Source of the DNA: a virus
Lineage: Duplodnaviria; Heunggongvirae; Uroviricota; Caudoviricetes
Reading direction: 5' to 3' (one strand)
DNA length: 37,796 bases
Virus record (IMG/VR): IMGVR_UViG_2897375277_000008
Span: 1-37,796 of that record
The notes under the pieces were generated by a model. The model was not told where the DNA came from. It ran no database searches and worked only from the letters and a program-made list of their open reading frames with translations. Made by a program: the position numbers and the translations under genes. Below, piece by piece: positions 26,183-33,153 of the stretch; the first letter of the stretch is position 1; each line of letters begins with the position of its first letter.

Positions 26183-26206
26183 GGCTTACGCCTCATTCTT
26201 TTTAGA
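26175..26206 (+). terminator. Intrinsic terminator between the convergent insert and Q gene
   Basis: Perfect 11-bp stem aagaatgaggc/gcctcattctt, loop ttac, then T-run; overlaps the insert gene stop and the Q stop codon. Confidence 0.7.
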
Positions 26207-26564
26207 ACTCAATCAAACAAATACATCCTTCAACAAACCCCAAGGCAGTCTGCAATTTTTTCCTAACTGTGCCATCTGAACATCTTCTCTTCTTGGCAAT
26301 AGTGCGTAATGAGATACCAATGACAAAGTGAGCTATGATTAGCTCATATTCCTCTGGTTTATACTTTCTCAACCGAGCCACACAACTGTCTATCATAATG
26401 CCTTCGTCATCATCACACTGAACCCGGGACTTTTTGCCATGAGGTAAAAGCCCCTTGAAGCCTGCAGCTATCGGCTGCCAGTCCACGCCACTGTTATCTG
26501 CTGCAGCCCATGCTCCCCAGCGGTCCAATACTTCATACATATCACGCATCAACTTTCTCCACAA
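26202..26564 (-). CDS. Late antiterminator Q (QuuD-like small Q family)
   Basis: 120-aa ORF with ...VLDRWGAWAAADN...IAAGFKGL...; matches my recollection of DLP12 QuuD; sits upstream of the lysis genes. Confidence 0.7.
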   Translation of the reverse strand: MWRKLMRDMYEVLDRWGAWAAADNSGVDWQPIAAGFKGLLPHGKKSRVQCDDDEGIMIDSCVARLRKYKPEEYELIIAHFVIGISLRTIAKKRRCSDGTVRKKLQTALGFVEGCICLIEF

Positions 26565-26566
26565 AA

Positions 26567-27562
26567 TCAGGCCAGCACGCCAATTGCCAGCGCACGATCG
26601 ATAAAACGAAATATCAGCTCCAGCTGGGAGCCATACTTCTCTTCAAATGCCACGGTATCCGCATGCAGCTCGTCGTGATGCTTTCTGCACAAAGGCAACA
26701 CAAAGAGGTCATGCGCTTTTGTTCCCATTCCACCCTGACCGTGACCTATCAGGTGGTGGGGATCATCAGCAGGCTTTCCACAACATGCACACGGCTGTGT
26801 CTTAACCCAGCGCGTGTACTTTTCATTAACCCAGCGGCGACGTTTTGGGCGTAACATAAAAGACCCCGGCGACTCCGGATCCACTTTCAGCGCCAGCACC
26901 TTTTTCGCTTTATCCTGGATGATGCTGGTGGCAGGAACCGAAGGCACAAGGTCACTTTCCCGGGTAACAGACGGCACAACAGGCTTCGGTAATCTCAGTG
27001 CCTTACGGGCTGCACTTTCCGGTAAGGCATCCGCCAGGTCATTACGAACCAGCCACCAGCACAGTTCCGGCATTGTCACAACGTGACTATCATCAAAACC
27101 GAGATCACGGCGCACAACAGATAACACCCAGCGGGCACAGTTATCCGTTGCCATTGATTCCAGCCGTTCCGTGAACTGATCACGCAACTGGTTATCGCAG
27201 TGCCAACACAGACGGATTACGCCCGGCGCGCGTCGCATTGTGGTCATGTTCTCGCTGTGCCAGTCGGAATGAGGCCACTGACAGCCCTTTTCACGAAGTA
27301 ACCAGCTTTCAAGACATTCCACGCCACCAGCACGACGGATCACTGCCTCATTGCGGAACACGGCCCGAACGGCAGGATCATCCGCCAGCGGTTGTGATGC
27401 CGCTGGAACGGCACCACTGGCGAAAGATGAATAACGCTCCGGCTCAGGCTCCAGCAGGACACGCCCCTGCATAAACAGGGGCATCAGCTCTGAACCAGGC
27501 CTGAACAATACGATCCCCATACGCGGGGCAATTTCAGGGGTCAGTAGTGCTCTCACGGTCAC
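26567..27562 (-). CDS. Nin-region protein, DUF968-like, with C-terminal Cys/His cluster
   Basis: 331-aa ORF; C-terminus CACCGKPADDPHHLIGHGQ...CRKHHDELH suggests a metal-binding or HNH-like module. Confidence 0.5.
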   Translation of the reverse strand: MTVRALLTPEIAPRMGIVLFRPGSELMPLFMQGRVLLEPEPERYSSFASGAVPAASQPLADDPAVRAVFRNEAVIRRAGGVECLESWLLREKGCQWPHSDWHSENMTTMRRAPGVIRLCWHCDNQLRDQFTERLESMATDNCARWVLSVVRRDLGFDDSHVVTMPELCWWLVRNDLADALPESAARKALRLPKPVVPSVTRESDLVPSVPATSIIQDKAKKVLALKVDPESPGSFMLRPKRRRWVNEKYTRWVKTQPCACCGKPADDPHHLIGHGQGGMGTKAHDLFVLPLCRKHHDELHADTVAFEEKYGSQLELIFRFIDRALAIGVLA

Positions 27563-27563
27563 C

Positions 27564-28394
27564 TCAATGAACGGTATCGAGCAGCTTTAACAGCTCAGGG
27601 AATCGGGATTCGAAGAAATGCGGCTGCGTCTCGCGCGGATTTGCAGGACTGGTGATGTTCTTGCCGAACATGCAGCCTTTCGCCGTTAGCGACCAGAATT
27701 TTTTGATGTTGTTAATCGCGGTACGGCTGTATCGTTCGCGTTGTTCAACGATCCCCAGCTTCACCATCTGGTGATATGCCTGATTAGCCGTCAGGCGGAT
27801 ACCATACTGCTTCAGCAGTGCACTCAGCGACAGCGTGGGGCGACTTGAGCCATCGTGTGCATCAGCAGGAGCATCAACGGCATAGCGCGGTGCCAGATTC
27901 GGTAAGCCAACAGCCTCCTGGAGTTTCTGACAGGCCCCAAGCACAGATGAGTTAGACAGGTTTAACTCCCGACGCATAAAGTCCAGCAGAATCACTCCAG
28001 CCTGCATCTTGTCAGCAGCCTGTCCGGATAATTTTTCCGGTGCGCTGGTTACCATGTCGAAAGTACGGATCACCTTCAGATGGAATGACGGGCTGATCCA
28101 CATTGCATAGGCATACACCAGTTCCTTACAGACATACGTCCCCTGATTATTTCCGCCGCGAATAACGTTAACTGGCTCTATATTGACCGAGTTGCAAATC
28201 TGCAACTCGCTTATTAAACGTTCAGTTTGCTCATTGCGGAGCCAGAATGCAGGCTTATGCTTATCCAGAGAACCGGCAGCCCTGTGCAGATCGTTCAGGC
28301 TGTAACGCCCATAAGCATCACGACGAACTTCAATACCATCAATGACCATCAGATTATTCATACTTCGTTTCTCCTCTTGATCAGGCGGCTGCAC
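27564..28394 (-). CDS. KilA-N domain protein (antirepressor-like)
   Basis: 276-aa ORF; N-terminal region ...MVIDGIEVRRDAYGRYSLNDLHRAAG... is KilA-N-like. Confidence 0.55.
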   Translation of the reverse strand: MQPPDQEEKRSMNNLMVIDGIEVRRDAYGRYSLNDLHRAAGSLDKHKPAFWLRNEQTERLISELQICNSVNIEPVNVIRGGNNQGTYVCKELVYAYAMWISPSFHLKVIRTFDMVTSAPEKLSGQAADKMQAGVILLDFMRRELNLSNSSVLGACQKLQEAVGLPNLAPRYAVDAPADAHDGSSRPTLSLSALLKQYGIRLTANQAYHQMVKLGIVEQRERYSRTAINNIKKFWSLTAKGCMFGKNITSPANPRETQPHFFESRFPELLKLLDTVH

Positions 28395-28770
28395 CCGCCG
28401 TTTTCTCGTACTTACTGATAGTGATCTCGACCTTCCCTTCCGGGATAACCGGTCCCCACTCCACCAGCATTCTTTTCACCTGGCTGTCGTCTTCCCACAC
28501 ACCCGCGTGGGTCAGGGCGTCAAACAGTGCCTTGTTATAGTTGTCCAGATCGCGGATCCGGTTATCCGGAGGAAACAACACAATCTCCACTGAAGCAGGT
28601 GCCGACGTTGGTTTCGGCAGACGACGTAACTGCTCAACTATTGCTGCGCACGCCGCGCTCTGGAATTTTCGCCCCGCCGCACTTATCAGGCTCTTACCAG
28701 CAAATGCCCCTTTGTTGGGGTGTCGCCAGTAGGTGTTCACGCTGGGCGGAAAAGGCAGGATCAGCTTCAT
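28381..28770 (-). CDS. rusA: RusA-type Holliday junction resolvase
   Basis: 129-aa ORF MKLILPFPPSVNTYWR... with acidic catalytic residues (…DLDNYNKALFDALT…). Confidence 0.85.
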   Translation of the reverse strand: MKLILPFPPSVNTYWRHPNKGAFAGKSLISAAGRKFQSAACAAIVEQLRRLPKPTSAPASVEIVLFPPDNRIRDLDNYNKALFDALTHAGVWEDDSQVKRMLVEWGPVIPEGKVEITISKYEKTAGAAA

Positions 28771-29093
28771 ACTTTCAGGGCCCTCTCATGTAACCAGTAG
28801 GTTGCACGCAGCCTGGCGTTTTCCTCACAAGCAAGCAGTGCGCGGATAATCCCGACCGCCTCGCTGTCGTCATCCTTCACCGCGGTATGAAGCGTTATCC
28901 CCCGGGCCACGCCACGCTTTATCGTGATGACGCCTTTTTTCTCCAGTGCGCGAAGATGCTCCACCGCTGCATTCACTGAACGGTATCCCAGCATGGTTGC
29001 CACCTCCTGATTGGTTGGCGGAAAGCCACGCTCTTTCTGGTAAGAAATCAGCATATCCAGCACCTGCTGCTGGCATTGAGTTAACGTCGTCAT
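28767..29093 (-). CDS. LexA-N-like winged-helix DNA-binding protein
   Basis: 108-aa ORF ...LTQCQQQVLDMLISYQKERGFPPTNQEVATMLGYRSVNAAVEHLRALEKKGVI...; no peptidase domain. Confidence 0.5.
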   Translation of the reverse strand: MTTLTQCQQQVLDMLISYQKERGFPPTNQEVATMLGYRSVNAAVEHLRALEKKGVITIKRGVARGITLHTAVKDDDSEAVGIIRALLACEENARLRATYWLHERALKV

Positions 29094-29776
29094 GCCGCCA
29101 TCTCCCTGACCAGTTTTTCTGCCTGCTGGCGAACCTGCGCCAGAAAGGCCTCACCACATGCCTCAAGTTCATCGCGCCCGATATAGCTGATTGCCGATCC
29201 CTTCCAGGTCTTATCGAAAACAGCAATAGCACCAGCGAAGAACGCTCCTGTCGGCACCTGCTTCTCATCCTTCGGGATAAACCAGACAGGCAGTTCAAAA
29301 CCAATACGCCCGCGAATAAAAGCAATATGGTCTGCATCTTCCGGCCACCACACTTCGCTGGTGGCAGCTTTGATCAGGAAAACATAGCGCCCGCCCTTAT
29401 CACGCATGGCACTGGCATGTTTCATGATGTAACGCATGCCGGTGATGTATTGCCCCTCATGCTGACTGGCGCGGCTGTATGGGGGATTACCAAAGGCAGC
29501 ACCTTTAAGCTCCGCAAGACGTTCTGACCAGTCATGCGCCAGCGCGTTGTCTTCCGCCGTGTAATACGCAGCACATTTGGTGTTATCACCGTCAGTGAAC
29601 AGATCCAGAACAAACGGGCCAAACAGGGTGTTAATTCCCCAGAAAATGTTGTCCGGCGTGCGCCACTGATCGCCCACTTCCTTCAGTTCATGGGCTGGTT
29701 TGTTCCGCAGTTCCACCAGCGCCTGGCAATATTTATTACTCATTAAGCCCCCACGTAATTCCCTGACAGATACCAC
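29090..29776 (-). CDS. Orphan DNA N6-adenine methyltransferase (phage Dam-like)
   Basis: 228-aa ORF containing the motif FGNPPYS (NPPY catalytic motif); no adjacent restriction gene. Confidence 0.7.
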   Translation of the reverse strand: MVSVRELRGGLMSNKYCQALVELRNKPAHELKEVGDQWRTPDNIFWGINTLFGPFVLDLFTDGDNTKCAAYYTAEDNALAHDWSERLAELKGAAFGNPPYSRASQHEGQYITGMRYIMKHASAMRDKGGRYVFLIKAATSEVWWPEDADHIAFIRGRIGFELPVWFIPKDEKQVPTGAFFAGAIAVFDKTWKGSAISYIGRDELEACGEAFLAQVRQQAEKLVREMAA

Positions 29777-30237
29777 TCTTCACCCGATGCAGCGCGCTTG
29801 CTGCTTTTCCGTAAGCACCGCTCACGACGCGCCAGAAAATTGTTTCGTTCTGGCTGGGAGTGGCTTTCACGGAATGCCGCCATCCACACCGTTGCAGCAC
29901 GACGGTATAAGCCCCTGGACTCCAGTTCTTCAGCCTGGCGGGTCAGGCACAAAATCTCCCGCGGGTCGTTAGTGCCGACATAGAAATTGCGCACAGGTCT
30001 GGTTTCACGAACTGGTTGCGGTTCCGCCTCCTGCGCTCTCTCAGTCAGGCGCGGGAAATGTCTGCGTGTATCCCCTTCACAACGGTGAGCCACACGACCA
30101 CTCTGACGTAACTTGCTTGCTGACTGCAGAACGCGCTGCCGTGAGTAACCTGCAAAAGCATCCGCAATGTCTCCGGAAGTACAGCCCGGATGGGCTTCAA
30201 TGAATTTCTGAACGTCATTCAAAAGACTCATGCTCAC
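29743..30237 (-). CDS. Hypothetical basic protein (possible regulator)
   Basis: 164-aa Arg-rich ORF downstream of the replication initiator. Confidence 0.4.
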   Translation of the reverse strand: MSMSLLNDVQKFIEAHPGCTSGDIADAFAGYSRQRVLQSASKLRQSGRVAHRCEGDTRRHFPRLTERAQEAEPQPVRETRPVRNFYVGTNDPREILCLTRQAEELESRGLYRRAATVWMAAFRESHSQPERNNFLARRERCLRKSSKRAASGEEWYLSGNYVGA

Positions 30238-31175
30238 CCCCTGAATCCTGCCGGGATCTGGCTGTAGTCCACATTGTCGTAACTGGCTTTGAAGTACGGG
30301 TCTTCGCGTTTTTCTGTGTACGTGCTGACGGACGGCGATAAGCGCAGGGAAAGCTCATCCCATTTTTCCCGCAGCTTCGACGGGCTGAGCACGTTACGGC
30401 ACCAGAACGGATCGCGGCTGACGCGGCTGTACATCTCGCAGATTTGTTTGTGAGTACGACCATCCTGCACACACATCAGGCGTATTTCGTTTGCCCATGC
30501 TGTCCAGTTCGGTTCTTTGGGACGTACCACTTCGCCGTCACATTCGGCGGCCTGCTCGTACAGAGCGATGATTTTTTTCCAGAGCCACTGTGCGCAGGTC
30601 AAATCATCCTGCGTCCCCCACTGGCGCTTTTTAGGGCTGAATACAACCGCATCAGGATGGCGAGTTAAAAAATCCTGTTCAGCCGTCTGCGTGTCCGGTT
30701 GCGAAGCGTCCGGACGAGAAGGTTTTTTATCTGACGGATCATGTTTTGATTTTACTGACGGATCCCCGCCAGATTCTGACGGGTGAAAACCCGCTTTTTT
30801 GCCAGATTTCGACGCATCAAATTTTGACGGGTCAGATTTTGATGCGTCAGATTTTGACGGGTCAGAATCTGACAGTTGAGAAAATGCCGCTGCCTGAAGC
30901 TTCGCAACGTTAAGCTGATAAACATTCGACGCATTGCGGTTACCCTGGCGACGCGCCTTACGCGTTAACCAGCCTTCTGCTTCCAGCCGTGCGATAGCCG
31001 TTCTGACGGTACTCATCCCCGCGCCAATCTGACGGGCAATGGTTTCAATTGATGGCCAGCACACACCTTCGTCATTACTGAAATCAGCCAGGCGGGCCAT
31101 AATTGCCACGCTGGATAACTTCATGCCTGATGCAGCGCAACCATCCCATACATAGCCGGTTAATTTAGTGCTCAT
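30234..31175 (-). CDS. Replication initiation protein (O-like, N-terminal winged helix, iterons inside gene)
   Basis: 313-aa ORF; N-terminal HTH-like region; central repeated peptide DPSKSDASKSDPSKFDASKSG encoded by the DNA iterons. Confidence 0.7.
   Translation of the reverse strand: MSTKLTGYVWDGCAASGMKLSSVAIMARLADFSNDEGVCWPSIETIARQIGAGMSTVRTAIARLEAEGWLTRKARRQGNRNASNVYQLNVAKLQAAAFSQLSDSDPSKSDASKSDPSKFDASKSGKKAGFHPSESGGDPSVKSKHDPSDKKPSRPDASQPDTQTAEQDFLTRHPDAVVFSPKKRQWGTQDDLTCAQWLWKKIIALYEQAAECDGEVVRPKEPNWTAWANEIRLMCVQDGRTHKQICEMYSRVSRDPFWCRNVLSPSKLREKWDELSLRLSPSVSTYTEKREDPYFKASYDNVDYSQIPAGFRG
30722..30881 (-). repeat. Origin iterons (about 8 tandem ~15-bp repeats)
   Basis: Repeats of attttgacgggtcag-like units, e.g. 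30822..30836, 30837..30851, 30852..30866, with degenerate copies upstream. Confidence 0.65.
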
Positions 31176-31184
31176 GACCGACCT

Positions 31185-31523
31185 CTATTTCCCTGAATTT
31201 ACGACGAAACTGTTCGAGCGGACTGAAGCATTCATGCTCATAACCTTCGCGGAGGTAGATAACCCGTTGTGTTTCCGGCTCCCAACGAATGACTCTGACG
31301 GGCACTCCGTAGTGATCTTTGAACCAGCGGTTAACTTGTCGCAAAGGACTGTCTCCTTCTGCCGGTTGAAATCCCCCACAGCCCACTCTGCAAAGCTGTG
31401 GGTTACAATTTCCCTGTCACCTGGTACATTCACTGCATAGCAATACTCCACCTTCGCTTTTCCACCCGGAACCGGAAGCGCAATCAGTTGCGAGCGACGG
31501 TAGTGTGTTGTTAAACTGTTCAT
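31185..31523 (-). CDS. Hypothetical protein (e14 YmfM-like by size and position)
   Basis: 112-aa ORF between the CII-like gene and the replication gene; overlaps an alternative-frame 73-aa ORF. Confidence 0.4.
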
Positions 31524-32083: not shown

Positions 32084-32114
32084 CGTTCTGTGGTTAAAAA
32101 TTGAAAGTGTTCTG

Positions 32115-32315
32115 CTAATCTTTCGGATAGATATCCGGTCTTAAGTCAGATTTCGTAATTGCACCTGATGTGTATTGCTCAAGTTTTTTAGCCAGCACAA
32201 AACTGGCTTTTTTATAGCCATTGAAAACCAGCCGTAAGTAGCCAGGTGTTGAGCCAACTTTTCCGGCCAACTCGCCCTGCTGTTCTTTGGTTAAAGAGTC
32301 CCAATACGCTTTCAT
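32115..32315 (-). CDS. cro: Cro-like repressor
   Basis: Start set at the Met of MKAYWDSLTKEQQGELAGKVGSTPGYLRLVFNG... (66 aa) with GGAGG Shine-Dalgarno; track ORF 32115..32618 is over-extended through the operator region. Confidence 0.7.
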   Translation of the reverse strand: MKAYWDSLTKEQQGELAGKVGSTPGYLRLVFNGYKKASFVLAKKLEQYTSGAITKSDLRPDIYPKD

Positions 32316-32405
32316 ACAATATGTACCTCCGGTATACATATTACATGATTGAAATGAACCTTCAAGATACTTGTACCTTAACGGTACAAGGGTTTTAATT
32401 TCGTT
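32316..32405. promoter_or_regulatory. Right operator/promoter region (divergent P_R and P_RM)
   Basis: 19-bp motif ATGTACCTCCGGTATACAT (32321..32339) and perfect 8-5-8 palindrome cttgtacc-ttaac-ggtacaag (32370..32390). P_R on minus: -35 at 32360..32365, -10 at 32338..32343. P_RM on plus: TTGTAC 32371..32376, N17, TTTAAT 32394..32399, about 7 nt from the cI ATG. Confidence 0.55.
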
Positions 32406-33080
32406 ATGAAAACAATCCATGACATCCGGCGGTCTAACGCCAGAAAACTGAGAGATGGTGTTGGCGGGAATTCTTCCTTTGCCACTATGATTGATCGCGA
32501 GCCAACCCAGACCAGCAGGTTTATGGGAGATGGTGCTACTAAAAATATCGGTGACAGCATGGCACGACACATCGAAAAATGTTTCGACCTGCCTGTCGGA
32601 TGGCTCGATCAAGAACACCAGACAACGAACATCACAAAAAAACCTGATGTTTCAATCACTAATAAACAAATCACATTAGTCCCTGTCATATCATGGGTAC
32701 AGGCCGGAGCATGGAAAGAAGTTGGATATTCTGAGGTTGATTTGAGCACAGCAGAAACGTATCCCTGCCCTGTACCCTGTGGGGAAATGACTTATATCTT
32801 GCGGGTGATAGGTGATTCAATGATTGATGAGTACCGCCCGGGAGACATGATTTTTGTCGATCCTGAAGTACCTGCCTGCCACGGTGACGACGTTATTGCA
32901 TTGATGCACGATACAGGTGAAACCACCTTCAAAAGGTTGATAGAAGATGGGACACAGCATTATCTCAAAGCGTTAAACCCAAACTGGCCTGAGCCTTACA
33001 TTAAGATCAACGGTAATTGCTCTATAATTGGAACTGTGATTTTCTCAGGAAAACCAAGAAGATACAAAATCAAAGCCTAA
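32406..33080 (+). CDS. cI: CI-type repressor (HTH plus S24 LexA-like peptidase domain)
   Basis: 224-aa ORF divergent from cro; C-terminal half ...LRVIGDSMIDEYRPGDMIFVDPE...GDDVIALMHDTGETTFKRL... is S24 autopeptidase-like. Confidence 0.85.
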   Translation: MKTIHDIRRSNARKLRDGVGGNSSFATMIDREPTQTSRFMGDGATKNIGDSMARHIEKCFDLPVGWLDQEHQTTNITKKPDVSITNKQITLVPVISWVQAGAWKEVGYSEVDLSTAETYPCPVPCGEMTYILRVIGDSMIDEYRPGDMIFVDPEVPACHGDDVIALMHDTGETTFKRLIEDGTQHYLKALNPNWPEPYIKINGNCSIIGTVIFSGKPRRYKIKA

Positions 33081-33092
33081 TCAATGTTTATG

Positions 33093-33115
33093 AACCTGCT
33101 TCGGCAGGTTTTTTT
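33093..33115 (+). terminator. Intrinsic terminator after cI
   Basis: Stem aacctgc/gcaggtt, loop ttcg, then TTTTT. Confidence 0.7.
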
Positions 33116-33119
33116 ATAC

Positions 33120-33153
33120 TTGACAATGTACCCTTAAGATACATAATGTACCC
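33120..33153 (+). promoter_or_regulatory. Candidate P_L-equivalent promoter with operator motif
   Basis: TTGACA (33120..33125), N17, ATAATG; overlapped by ATGTACCCTTAAGATACAT (33126..33144), same 19-bp pattern as in O_R, plus a second ATGTACCC at 33146..33153. Confidence 0.5.

Follow-up and report, generated by a model that had tools for sequence, protein, structure and literature searches.

Candidate replication origin embedded in the initiator gene of an SfII/SfIV-like lambdoid prophage

The DNA analyzed here (positions 1 to 37,796 of the IMG/VR virus record IMGVR_UViG_2897375277_000008, Caudoviricetes; hereafter, the window) corresponds to a lambdoid prophage, SfII/SfIV-like, whose replication initiator gene, rep, contains a series of 15-bp repeats in the region coding for the linker between the N-terminal and C-terminal domains of its product (Table 1). 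Based on sequence comparisons, the segment 30699-30881, where rep codes for the linker, is probably the replication origin of the phage, which would thus lie within the gene of its own initiator. The original prediction, made from the sequence alone, had proposed that these repeats mark the likely origin and the initiator-binding sites, and that reading was supported by a freeze of synonymous positions limited to the repeat zone, by mosaic initiator genes, by repeat periods that are not multiples of three in relatives, and by covariation between the repeats and the recognition helix of the initiator. As far as sequences can tell, all computational tests separating cis-acting, initiator-binding repeats from a repetitive peptide linker favoured the former.

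Repeat units and conservation at the nucleotide level

Tandem Repeats Finder reported 4.3 copies of a 15-bp period at 30803-30866 (81% matches; consensus CAGATTTTGACGGGT) and, as an alternative for the same segment, 2.1 copies of a 30-bp period (88% matches). A repeat search extended the array to six copies from 30767 (spacing of 33, 15, 15, 15 and 15 bp), plus two copies at 30729 and 30753. Eight 15-bp units of the form TCTGAC-NNN-TCAAAA were counted on the coding (minus) strand within 30729-30881, in agreement with the "about eight" repeats that had been predicted, and the repeat units were thus reproducible by formal analysis. Their description as tandem was accurate for five of them (U0-U4), whereas the other three are dispersed, U6, U7 and U8 lying at distances of 33, 21 and 24 bp. 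The predicted SD(P/A)SK linker peptide was also recovered, since the units translate as SDPSK, SDASK, SDPSK and FDASK, followed by HPSE, GDPSV and HDPSD (array peptide: ...SDSDPSKSDASKSDPSKFDASKS...HPSE..GDPSV..HDPSD).

The core of the units, GAYNNNTCARA, had 14 matches in the 37.8-kb window, where 4.7 were expected, and none of 100 shuffles reached 14. Eight of the 14 matches clustered in 137 bp (30730-30866), and no second cluster of the motif was found anywhere in the window. Given that U1-U3 match the core on both strands, the units are dyad-symmetric.

Codon usage was compared in 35 sequences homologous to the N-domain and linker, drawn from different species of Enterobacterales (60-84% amino acid identity), and the codon table covered 36 homologues (60-100% amino acid identity), only conserved residues being compared. 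At the conserved residues of the N-domain (65 columns, 36 homologues), the fraction of the top codon was 0.54, with 2.5 effective codons, while the alignable block of the linker had 1.18 effective codons and a top-codon fraction of 0.93 (Mann-Whitney p = 5e-7). The serine codons TCT and TCA made up 86% in the linker vs. 19% in the N-domain. A sliding profile based on 25 full-length genes delimited the zone, with values of 0.92-0.99 within 30699-30881 and of 0.43-0.73 in both flanks. Within this frozen zone, the central codon of the units was nevertheless hypervariable (CCG, GCA, GCC, GCG, ACG, ACA, GGG, GTA, CTG, CAC, GAG and CGC), and substitutions in the first codon (TCT to TTT, ACT, TAT, CCT or ATT) nearly always retained the T at the third base. 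Because central codons are hypervariable and first codons are substituted, the codon freeze does not result from recent common ancestry; the sequences have diverged, and conservation therefore acts on twelve specific nucleotides of each unit and not on the peptide. Computation showed in this way that the repeats are under DNA-level rather than protein-level selection. In an AlphaFold model of the protein made from 27 sequences, the linker (aa 103-186) was predicted to be disordered, with a predicted local distance difference test score (pLDDT) below 50, and little constraint at the protein level is therefore expected.

Regarding array length, the rep product had 313 aa in all 80 near-identical viral contigs among the matches listed, and this constancy makes a neutral, slippage-prone tract unlikely. 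Across the genera of close homologues, the number of units ranged from 6 to 11. The columns of a near-palindrome with inverted repeats (Table 1) were invariant in a 13-sequence alignment. A 14-bp direct repeat (GTCCGGTTGCGAAG / GTCCGGACGAGAAG, 15 bp apart, encoding the peptide SRPDASQPD) is located at 30693-30721, on the margin of the frozen zone and at the point where the N-module and the C-module are swapped between phages.

Table 1. Coordinates of rep, of its encoded domains and of the repeat units in the window, together with a second short array present in other rep types
Feature	Position	Strand	Sequence	Basis or description
Replication initiator gene (rep), 313 aa	30234-31175	minus		Open reading frame (ORF) list; winged-helix N-domain, disordered linker, lambda-O-like C-domain, short tail
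N-terminal winged-helix DNA-binding domain, aa 1-98	30882-31175	minus		AlphaFold, Pfam; presumed iteron reader
C-terminal domain, aa 165-277	30345-30683	minus		BLASTP; homologous to lambda O C-domain
C-terminal tail, aa 305-313	30237-30263	minus	SQIPAGFRG	BLASTP to DnaT
Proposed origin core, aa 99-159	30699-30881			183 bp; synonymous positions near-invariant; per-column codon table, sliding profile
Five tandem units, U0-U4	30807-30881			Codon-phased; each encodes S-D-x-S-K; central codon free, 12 flanking bp conserved
U0	30867-30881	coding (minus)	TCTCAACTGTCAGAT	
U1	30852-30866	coding (minus)	TCTGACCCGTCAAAA	
U2	30837-30851	coding (minus)	TCTGACGCATCAAAA	
U3	30822-30836	coding (minus)	TCTGACCCGTCAAAA	
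U4	30807-30821	coding (minus)	TTTGATGCGTCGAAA	
U6	30774-30788	coding (minus)	TTTCACCCGTCAGAA	33 bp from U4; DNA near-invariant in all homologues
U7	30753-30767	coding (minus)	GGGGATCCGTCAGTA	Includes GATC at 30761-30764
U8	30729-30743	coding (minus)	CATGATCCGTCAGAT	Includes GATC at 30737-30740
Near-palindrome, 19 bp	30765-30783		CCCGTCAGAATCTGGCGGG	Spans U6 edge; inverted repeats; most conserved stretch of the zone
Candidate DNA-unwinding element	30716-30756			68% AT; least stable 40-bp stretch of rep; codons 140-154; gene-distal end of repeats
Second array, 12-bp unit (other rep types)	SfV (L164) and L165, nt 391-420; cdtI (L166), nt 457-486; L002, nt 454-491; L124			

Inheritance of the repeats with the N-terminal domain

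The protein encoded by rep combines two halves of different affiliation. In the N-terminal half, a match to the Pfam family HTH_36 covered aa 23-70 and exceeded the gathering score (E = 4e-11), the other matches of the scan being to GntR and similar families. PF04492 (Phage_rep_O) was absent from rep at E ≤ 0.01, while lambda O itself scored this family at E = 6e-36 in an equivalent scan. The AlphaFold model placed a helix-turn-helix followed by a beta-hairpin wing in aa 1-98 (pLDDT about 70-86) and a helical C-domain in aa 189-278 (pLDDT 75-86). The best Foldseek matches to the N-domain were exclusively dimeric winged helix-turn-helix regulators of the MarR type, with weak E values (about 0.02). 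The C-domain had no match in Pfam, NCBIfam or PDB sequence searches, and it was identified only when the protein was compared directly with lambda O by BLASTP (31% identity over 216 aa, E = 7e-26, densest at aa 182-277). PHROG 391 ("replication initiation O-like") matched the protein over its full length (E = 8e-136; aa 1-313, profile positions 1-298 of 298). Considering the BLASTP result and the lack of Phage_rep_O, rep is O-like in its C-terminal half and not in its DNA-binding half, so that the "O-like gene" of the original prediction was correct for the former and not for the latter, which is of the HTH_36 type.

Mosaic genes allowed the two halves to be followed separately. Citrobacter phage phiNP has both the N-domain and the 15-bp repeats in common with the window (82.7% nucleotide identity), but its C-domain is of another type, TIGR02220/PF09524, and its rep neighbours are also different (Rha and a methylase, the latter directly after rep). 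Conversely, mEp460_4F5 has the C-domain of the window (97% identity) attached to an unrelated N-domain, and the repeats at the equivalent place differ, having a 23-bp period plus a 12-bp triplet. A third HTH_36 N-domain occurs in SfV, cdtI and Stx2a_WGPS2 (the "Eru6" reference), again with its own repeats, of 21-24 bp, at codons 89-146. As these sequence comparisons show, the repeats are inherited with the N-domain, not with the C-domain. Relative to SfV, phage cdtI showed a 66-bp internal duplication (rep nt 266-436) that raised the count of its 21-bp repeat from about 2.5 to 7.7; within a single rep type, iteron copy number therefore changes through the duplication of units. A second short array was observed after the main repeats in other rep types (12-bp unit, 2.5-3 copies, e.g., GAACCAGTCAAA; Table 1), with no clear equivalent in the clade of the window.

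The comparison was widened to distant homologues (27-47% identity) from Pseudomonas, Pigmentiphaga, Achromobacter, Psychrobacter, Thorsellia and others. Tandem repeats were present 245-400 nt into the gene in 32 of 39 of them, with periods mostly of 16, 17, 22 or 23 bp which, not being multiples of three, denote DNA repeats and not peptide repeats. Lineage-specific repeats directly after the winged-helix coding region were thus a feature of 36/36 close and 32/39 distant homologues, an observation of this analysis that does not correspond to a published family definition. In the close Enterobacterales set, the recognition-helix region varied at few positions only and the repeat core was constant; covariation was consequently analyzed in a distant, Pseudomonas-type clade. 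There, a recognition helix with Q..K and a wing with M/V/I occurred with CCCCGCA repeats (20/20 loci), and a helix with R..R and a wing with W occurred with CCCGGCA repeats (7/7 loci). The association held in 27/27 loci (Fisher p = 1e-6), a value not corrected for phylogeny and obtained from loci retrieved by a peptide pattern from the N-domain, and it is the pattern expected of a reader and its cognate sites.

Proposed origin function and alternative explanations

According to the mechanism proposed here, dimers of the N-domain (aa 1-98) would bind to the eight 15-bp units, which are dyad-symmetric (consensus TCTGAY-NNN-TCARAA), the resulting nucleoprotein array would destabilise the adjacent AT-richer segment 30716-30756, and the lambda-O-like C-domain together with a DnaT-like tail would bring in the host DnaB helicase through host factors; physical binding, unwinding of the AT-rich end and the helicase-loading route are thus what we infer. 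In a nearest-neighbour stability scan, 30716-30756 (z = 1.85) was in the top 4% of the window, within the frozen codon zone. No DnaA boxes were found in the rep gene at ≤ 1 mismatch. GATC sites were not enriched in the window (140 vs. 143 expected), and two of them fall in the frozen zone, where the GAT-CC codon pairs of U7 and U8 were invariant among homologues. Together with a phage Dam gene (29090-29776) two genes downstream of rep, these sites may link methylation to origin firing.

Several points weigh against an origin at this place. The candidate unwinding element is weak, both in AT content and in z value, and much less marked than that of lambda. Besides, a 15-bp period sets successive sites on roughly opposite faces of the helix, which is unusual compared with the iterons of lambda and most plasmids, spaced 20-24 bp, and the binding register is ambiguous, as the units can be read as either of two palindromes, TGAC-NN-GTCA with the free codon at its centre or GTCA-N5-TGAC with the unit junction at its centre. 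The limits given above for the helix-repeat covariation count here as well. Finally, the literature search gave no paper in which an origin had been mapped for initiators of this family, and the replication of related non-lambdoid "Eru" modules with HTH proteins has been stated as unknown (PMC8951638).

The sites might be bound by the initiator mainly for autoregulation or copy control, through a transcription roadblock on its own gene or through handcuffing, with strand opening taking place elsewhere. Such a role would fit their position inside the initiator's own transcription unit, the weakness of the adjoining AT-rich element and the existence of less stable stretches in the immunity region (32100-33150). 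We regard it as unlikely, however, given the lack of another motif cluster in the 37.8-kb window, the extension of the frozen zone over the AT-richer end, and the fact that the same layout in lambda is an origin (PMC7466680); moreover, autoregulation and origin functions are not mutually exclusive. It is considerably less probable that the sites belong to a protein other than the initiator N-domain, i.e., to PerC-like, CII-like or LexA DNA-binding domain (DBD)-like phage proteins or to a host factor. Although several DNA-binding proteins are encoded close by, the repeats are co-inherited with the N-domain when neighbours and C-domain differ, as in phiNP, their sequence covaries with the residues of the recognition helix of that domain, and the gene has no DnaA box.

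Two further explanations dispense with binding sites. If the repeats had a role only in the protein, as a flexible SDxSK linker produced by slippage, nucleotide conservation would be a by-product. A 15-bp period that is a multiple of three, a repetitive peptide and the varying copy number among genera (6-11 units) are all compatible with this; yet the freeze affects synonymous positions and spares the central residue, the segment is predicted to be disordered, the 16-, 17-, 22- and 23-bp periods of relatives cannot encode peptide repeats, and no length polymorphism occurred in 80 near-identical copies among the matches listed, which together leave this explanation with very little probability. 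An overlapping feature as the cause of the frozen zone (an mRNA hairpin, an antisense ORF or a +1-frame ORF) we consider the most improbable of all. The sense-strand RNA does fold (z = -5.1) and an antisense frame was open for at least 53 aa in 36/36 homologues, but in the consensus fold of 13 homologues only one pair was compensatory and the covariation term was -0.18, the long hairpin of the window was not conserved in those homologues, and the alternative-frame ORFs start with TTG, encode low-complexity products and shift in length with copy number; such a feature would also leave the N-domain covariation unexplained. A conserved mRNA hairpin was accordingly rejected, being essentially devoid of covariation in the 13 homologues, and was judged a by-product of the tandem palindromes, since tandem palindromic units automatically fold into the predicted hairpins. 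Overlapping ORFs were likewise rejected as the cause of conservation, on the grounds of their TTG starts and low-complexity products.

Possible helicase recruitment, genomic context and comparison with known systems

In lambda, the C-domain of O recruits the P-DnaB complex. No P, DnaC-like or DnaB-like gene was found in the window between the initiator and Q (26202-30233), although the initiator retains a C-domain homologous to this P-binding domain of O. Compared with lambda O, which lacks this tail, rep carries about 35 extra residues ending in SQIPAGFRG, and this end was identical in 8/9 positions to the extreme C-terminus of Escherichia coli DnaT (SQIPPGFRG; both C-terminal; pairwise E = 0.009). 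The DnaT-like tail was also present in reps of the SfV type and in mEp460_4F5, and reps of the PF09524 type end in IPxxGFRG/S. As judged from its sequence, the tail may be a handle for a host or phage loader. A bolder scheme would have a lambdoid replicon made of a single gene, joining an HTH_36 reader to a lambda-O-type C-domain and using 15-bp iterons in phase with codons, in which a C-terminal peptide copied from the host restart protein DnaT (SQIPxGFRG) replaces the missing P/DnaC and so loads DnaB at the origin through host DnaT-DnaC, while two conserved GATCs at the unwinding end tie firing to the phage Dam; we put it forward as a speculative and rather doubtful possibility.

A search of plasmids for an independent replicon with the rep module gave matches mostly to prophage-like or mis-typed records. 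One related rep was found on NZ_CP148542.1, a circular 16-kb record (15,977 bp) typed as a plasmid; it ends in SEPDTEIPPGFRG, and DnaT ends in SEPDSQIPPGFRG. This record amounts to a lambdoid segment running from early to lysis genes, with a repressor, cro, rep with an internal stop in the linker, an "ATP-binding protein" gene, RusA, Q and lysis genes, and its rep carries another codon-phased repeat (DPSNI/DPSTV/DPSNF). The gene after rep is the one annotated as "ATP-binding protein", and a DnaC-like reading of it derives from position only; given that reading, the pair would echo the dnaT-dnaC operon of the host. The record may represent either a replicon of the lambda-dv type or an artefact of assembly.

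As for the surrounding genes, rep is preceded by cI, cro, a CII-like gene and small ORFs, and is followed, up to Q, by genes for PerC-like, Dam, LexA_DNA_bind, RusA, KilA-N, DUF968/HNH and Q products, a rep-to-Q content with which the annotation of SfII concurs. The rep gene shared 98-99% nucleotide identity with that of Escherichia phage Kati and of Shigella phages SfIV and SfII, in which it is annotated as "primosomal protein", "replication protein O" or "O protein family". On the minus strand, two ORFs read in different frames overlap, one at 31165-31386 (DUF4222, E = 3e-19) and the other at 31185-31523 (phrog_1170, E = 8e-70), and public annotations choose only one of them.

An origin embedded in the initiator gene is of a kind already known in lambdoid phages. 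The lambda paradigm, with iterons and an AT-rich tract midway along O, has been established by experiment, as have its variants in Stx phages (PMC7466680). The window resembles ori-lambda, as well as the origins of Stx phages 933W and P27, in having dyad-symmetric direct repeats in the linker-coding middle of the initiator gene, an AT-richer gene-distal stretch, homologous C-domains and an equivalent place of the gene in the early-right operon, after cro and cII. The annotated iterons of lambda occupy O codons 117-145, between the AT-rich tract that comes after them and no other feature of note before the linker, and the units of the window occupy codons 99-149, also just upstream of the C-domain, which bears out the earlier comparison with the arrangement of ori-lambda inside O. 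The differences lie in the N-domain (HTH_36 vs. Phage_rep_O), in the repeats (eight codon-phased 15-bp units in the window, vs. four iterons in lambda and six in Stx phages, of about 18-19 bp and spaced 20-24 bp), in the weak AT-rich element, in the lack of a P gene and in the extra DnaT-like tail.

Other lambdoid initiators, namely gene 18 of P22 and gene 18 of phage L, also have their own repeat type inside the coding region, with four repeats of about 20 bp in P22 and six imprecise 11-bp repeats in L (bioRxiv 10.1101/2020.10.05.325894). Their repeat sequences are unrelated to those of the window, and their initiator is paired with a DnaB-type helicase (gene 12), whereas the window has no second replication gene. 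A resemblance in domain make-up and neighbours was also seen with SfV orf39, the Stx phage "Eru6" (Stx2a_WGPS2) and cdtI, which share the HTH_36 N-domain type, an identical C-terminal tail (REDPYFKASYDNVDYSQIPAGFRG), linker repeats at aa 89-146 and the downstream PerC-like, Dam, LexA-DBD and RusA genes. They differ in the sequence of the N-domain, in the core of the C-domain and in their repeats, which measure 21-24 bp (GTGCAGGAGATTCACCAGGTA) and are accompanied by a 12-bp triplet. Iteron plasmid origins likewise consist of multiple direct repeats read by a winged-helix Rep beside an easily melted region; however, their iterons are usually intergenic, measure 17-22 bp and are accompanied by DnaA boxes, while those of the window are intragenic, with no DnaA box nearby. 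Three details are unusual here, namely the different reader domain, the 15-bp units, which are codon-phased and leave the central codon free, and the lack of a helicase-delivery gene.

The genome paper of SfIV makes no mention of an origin (PMC3851460), and the segment described here gives a concrete candidate, of about 180 bp, for phages of the SfII/SfIV/Kati type. It is also relevant to a much larger set of Enterobacterales and Pseudomonas prophages with HTH_36-type initiators, including the "Eru"-type Shiga-toxin phages, described as uncharacterised in their replication (PMC8951638). The repeats would represent a clean natural case of dual coding, in which 12 of every 15 bases would belong to a protein-binding site, the central codon of each pentapeptide alone being left free to change. 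Furthermore, the combination of a DnaT-like tail with the lack of a helicase-loader gene offers a way into how such phages recruit the helicase of their host.

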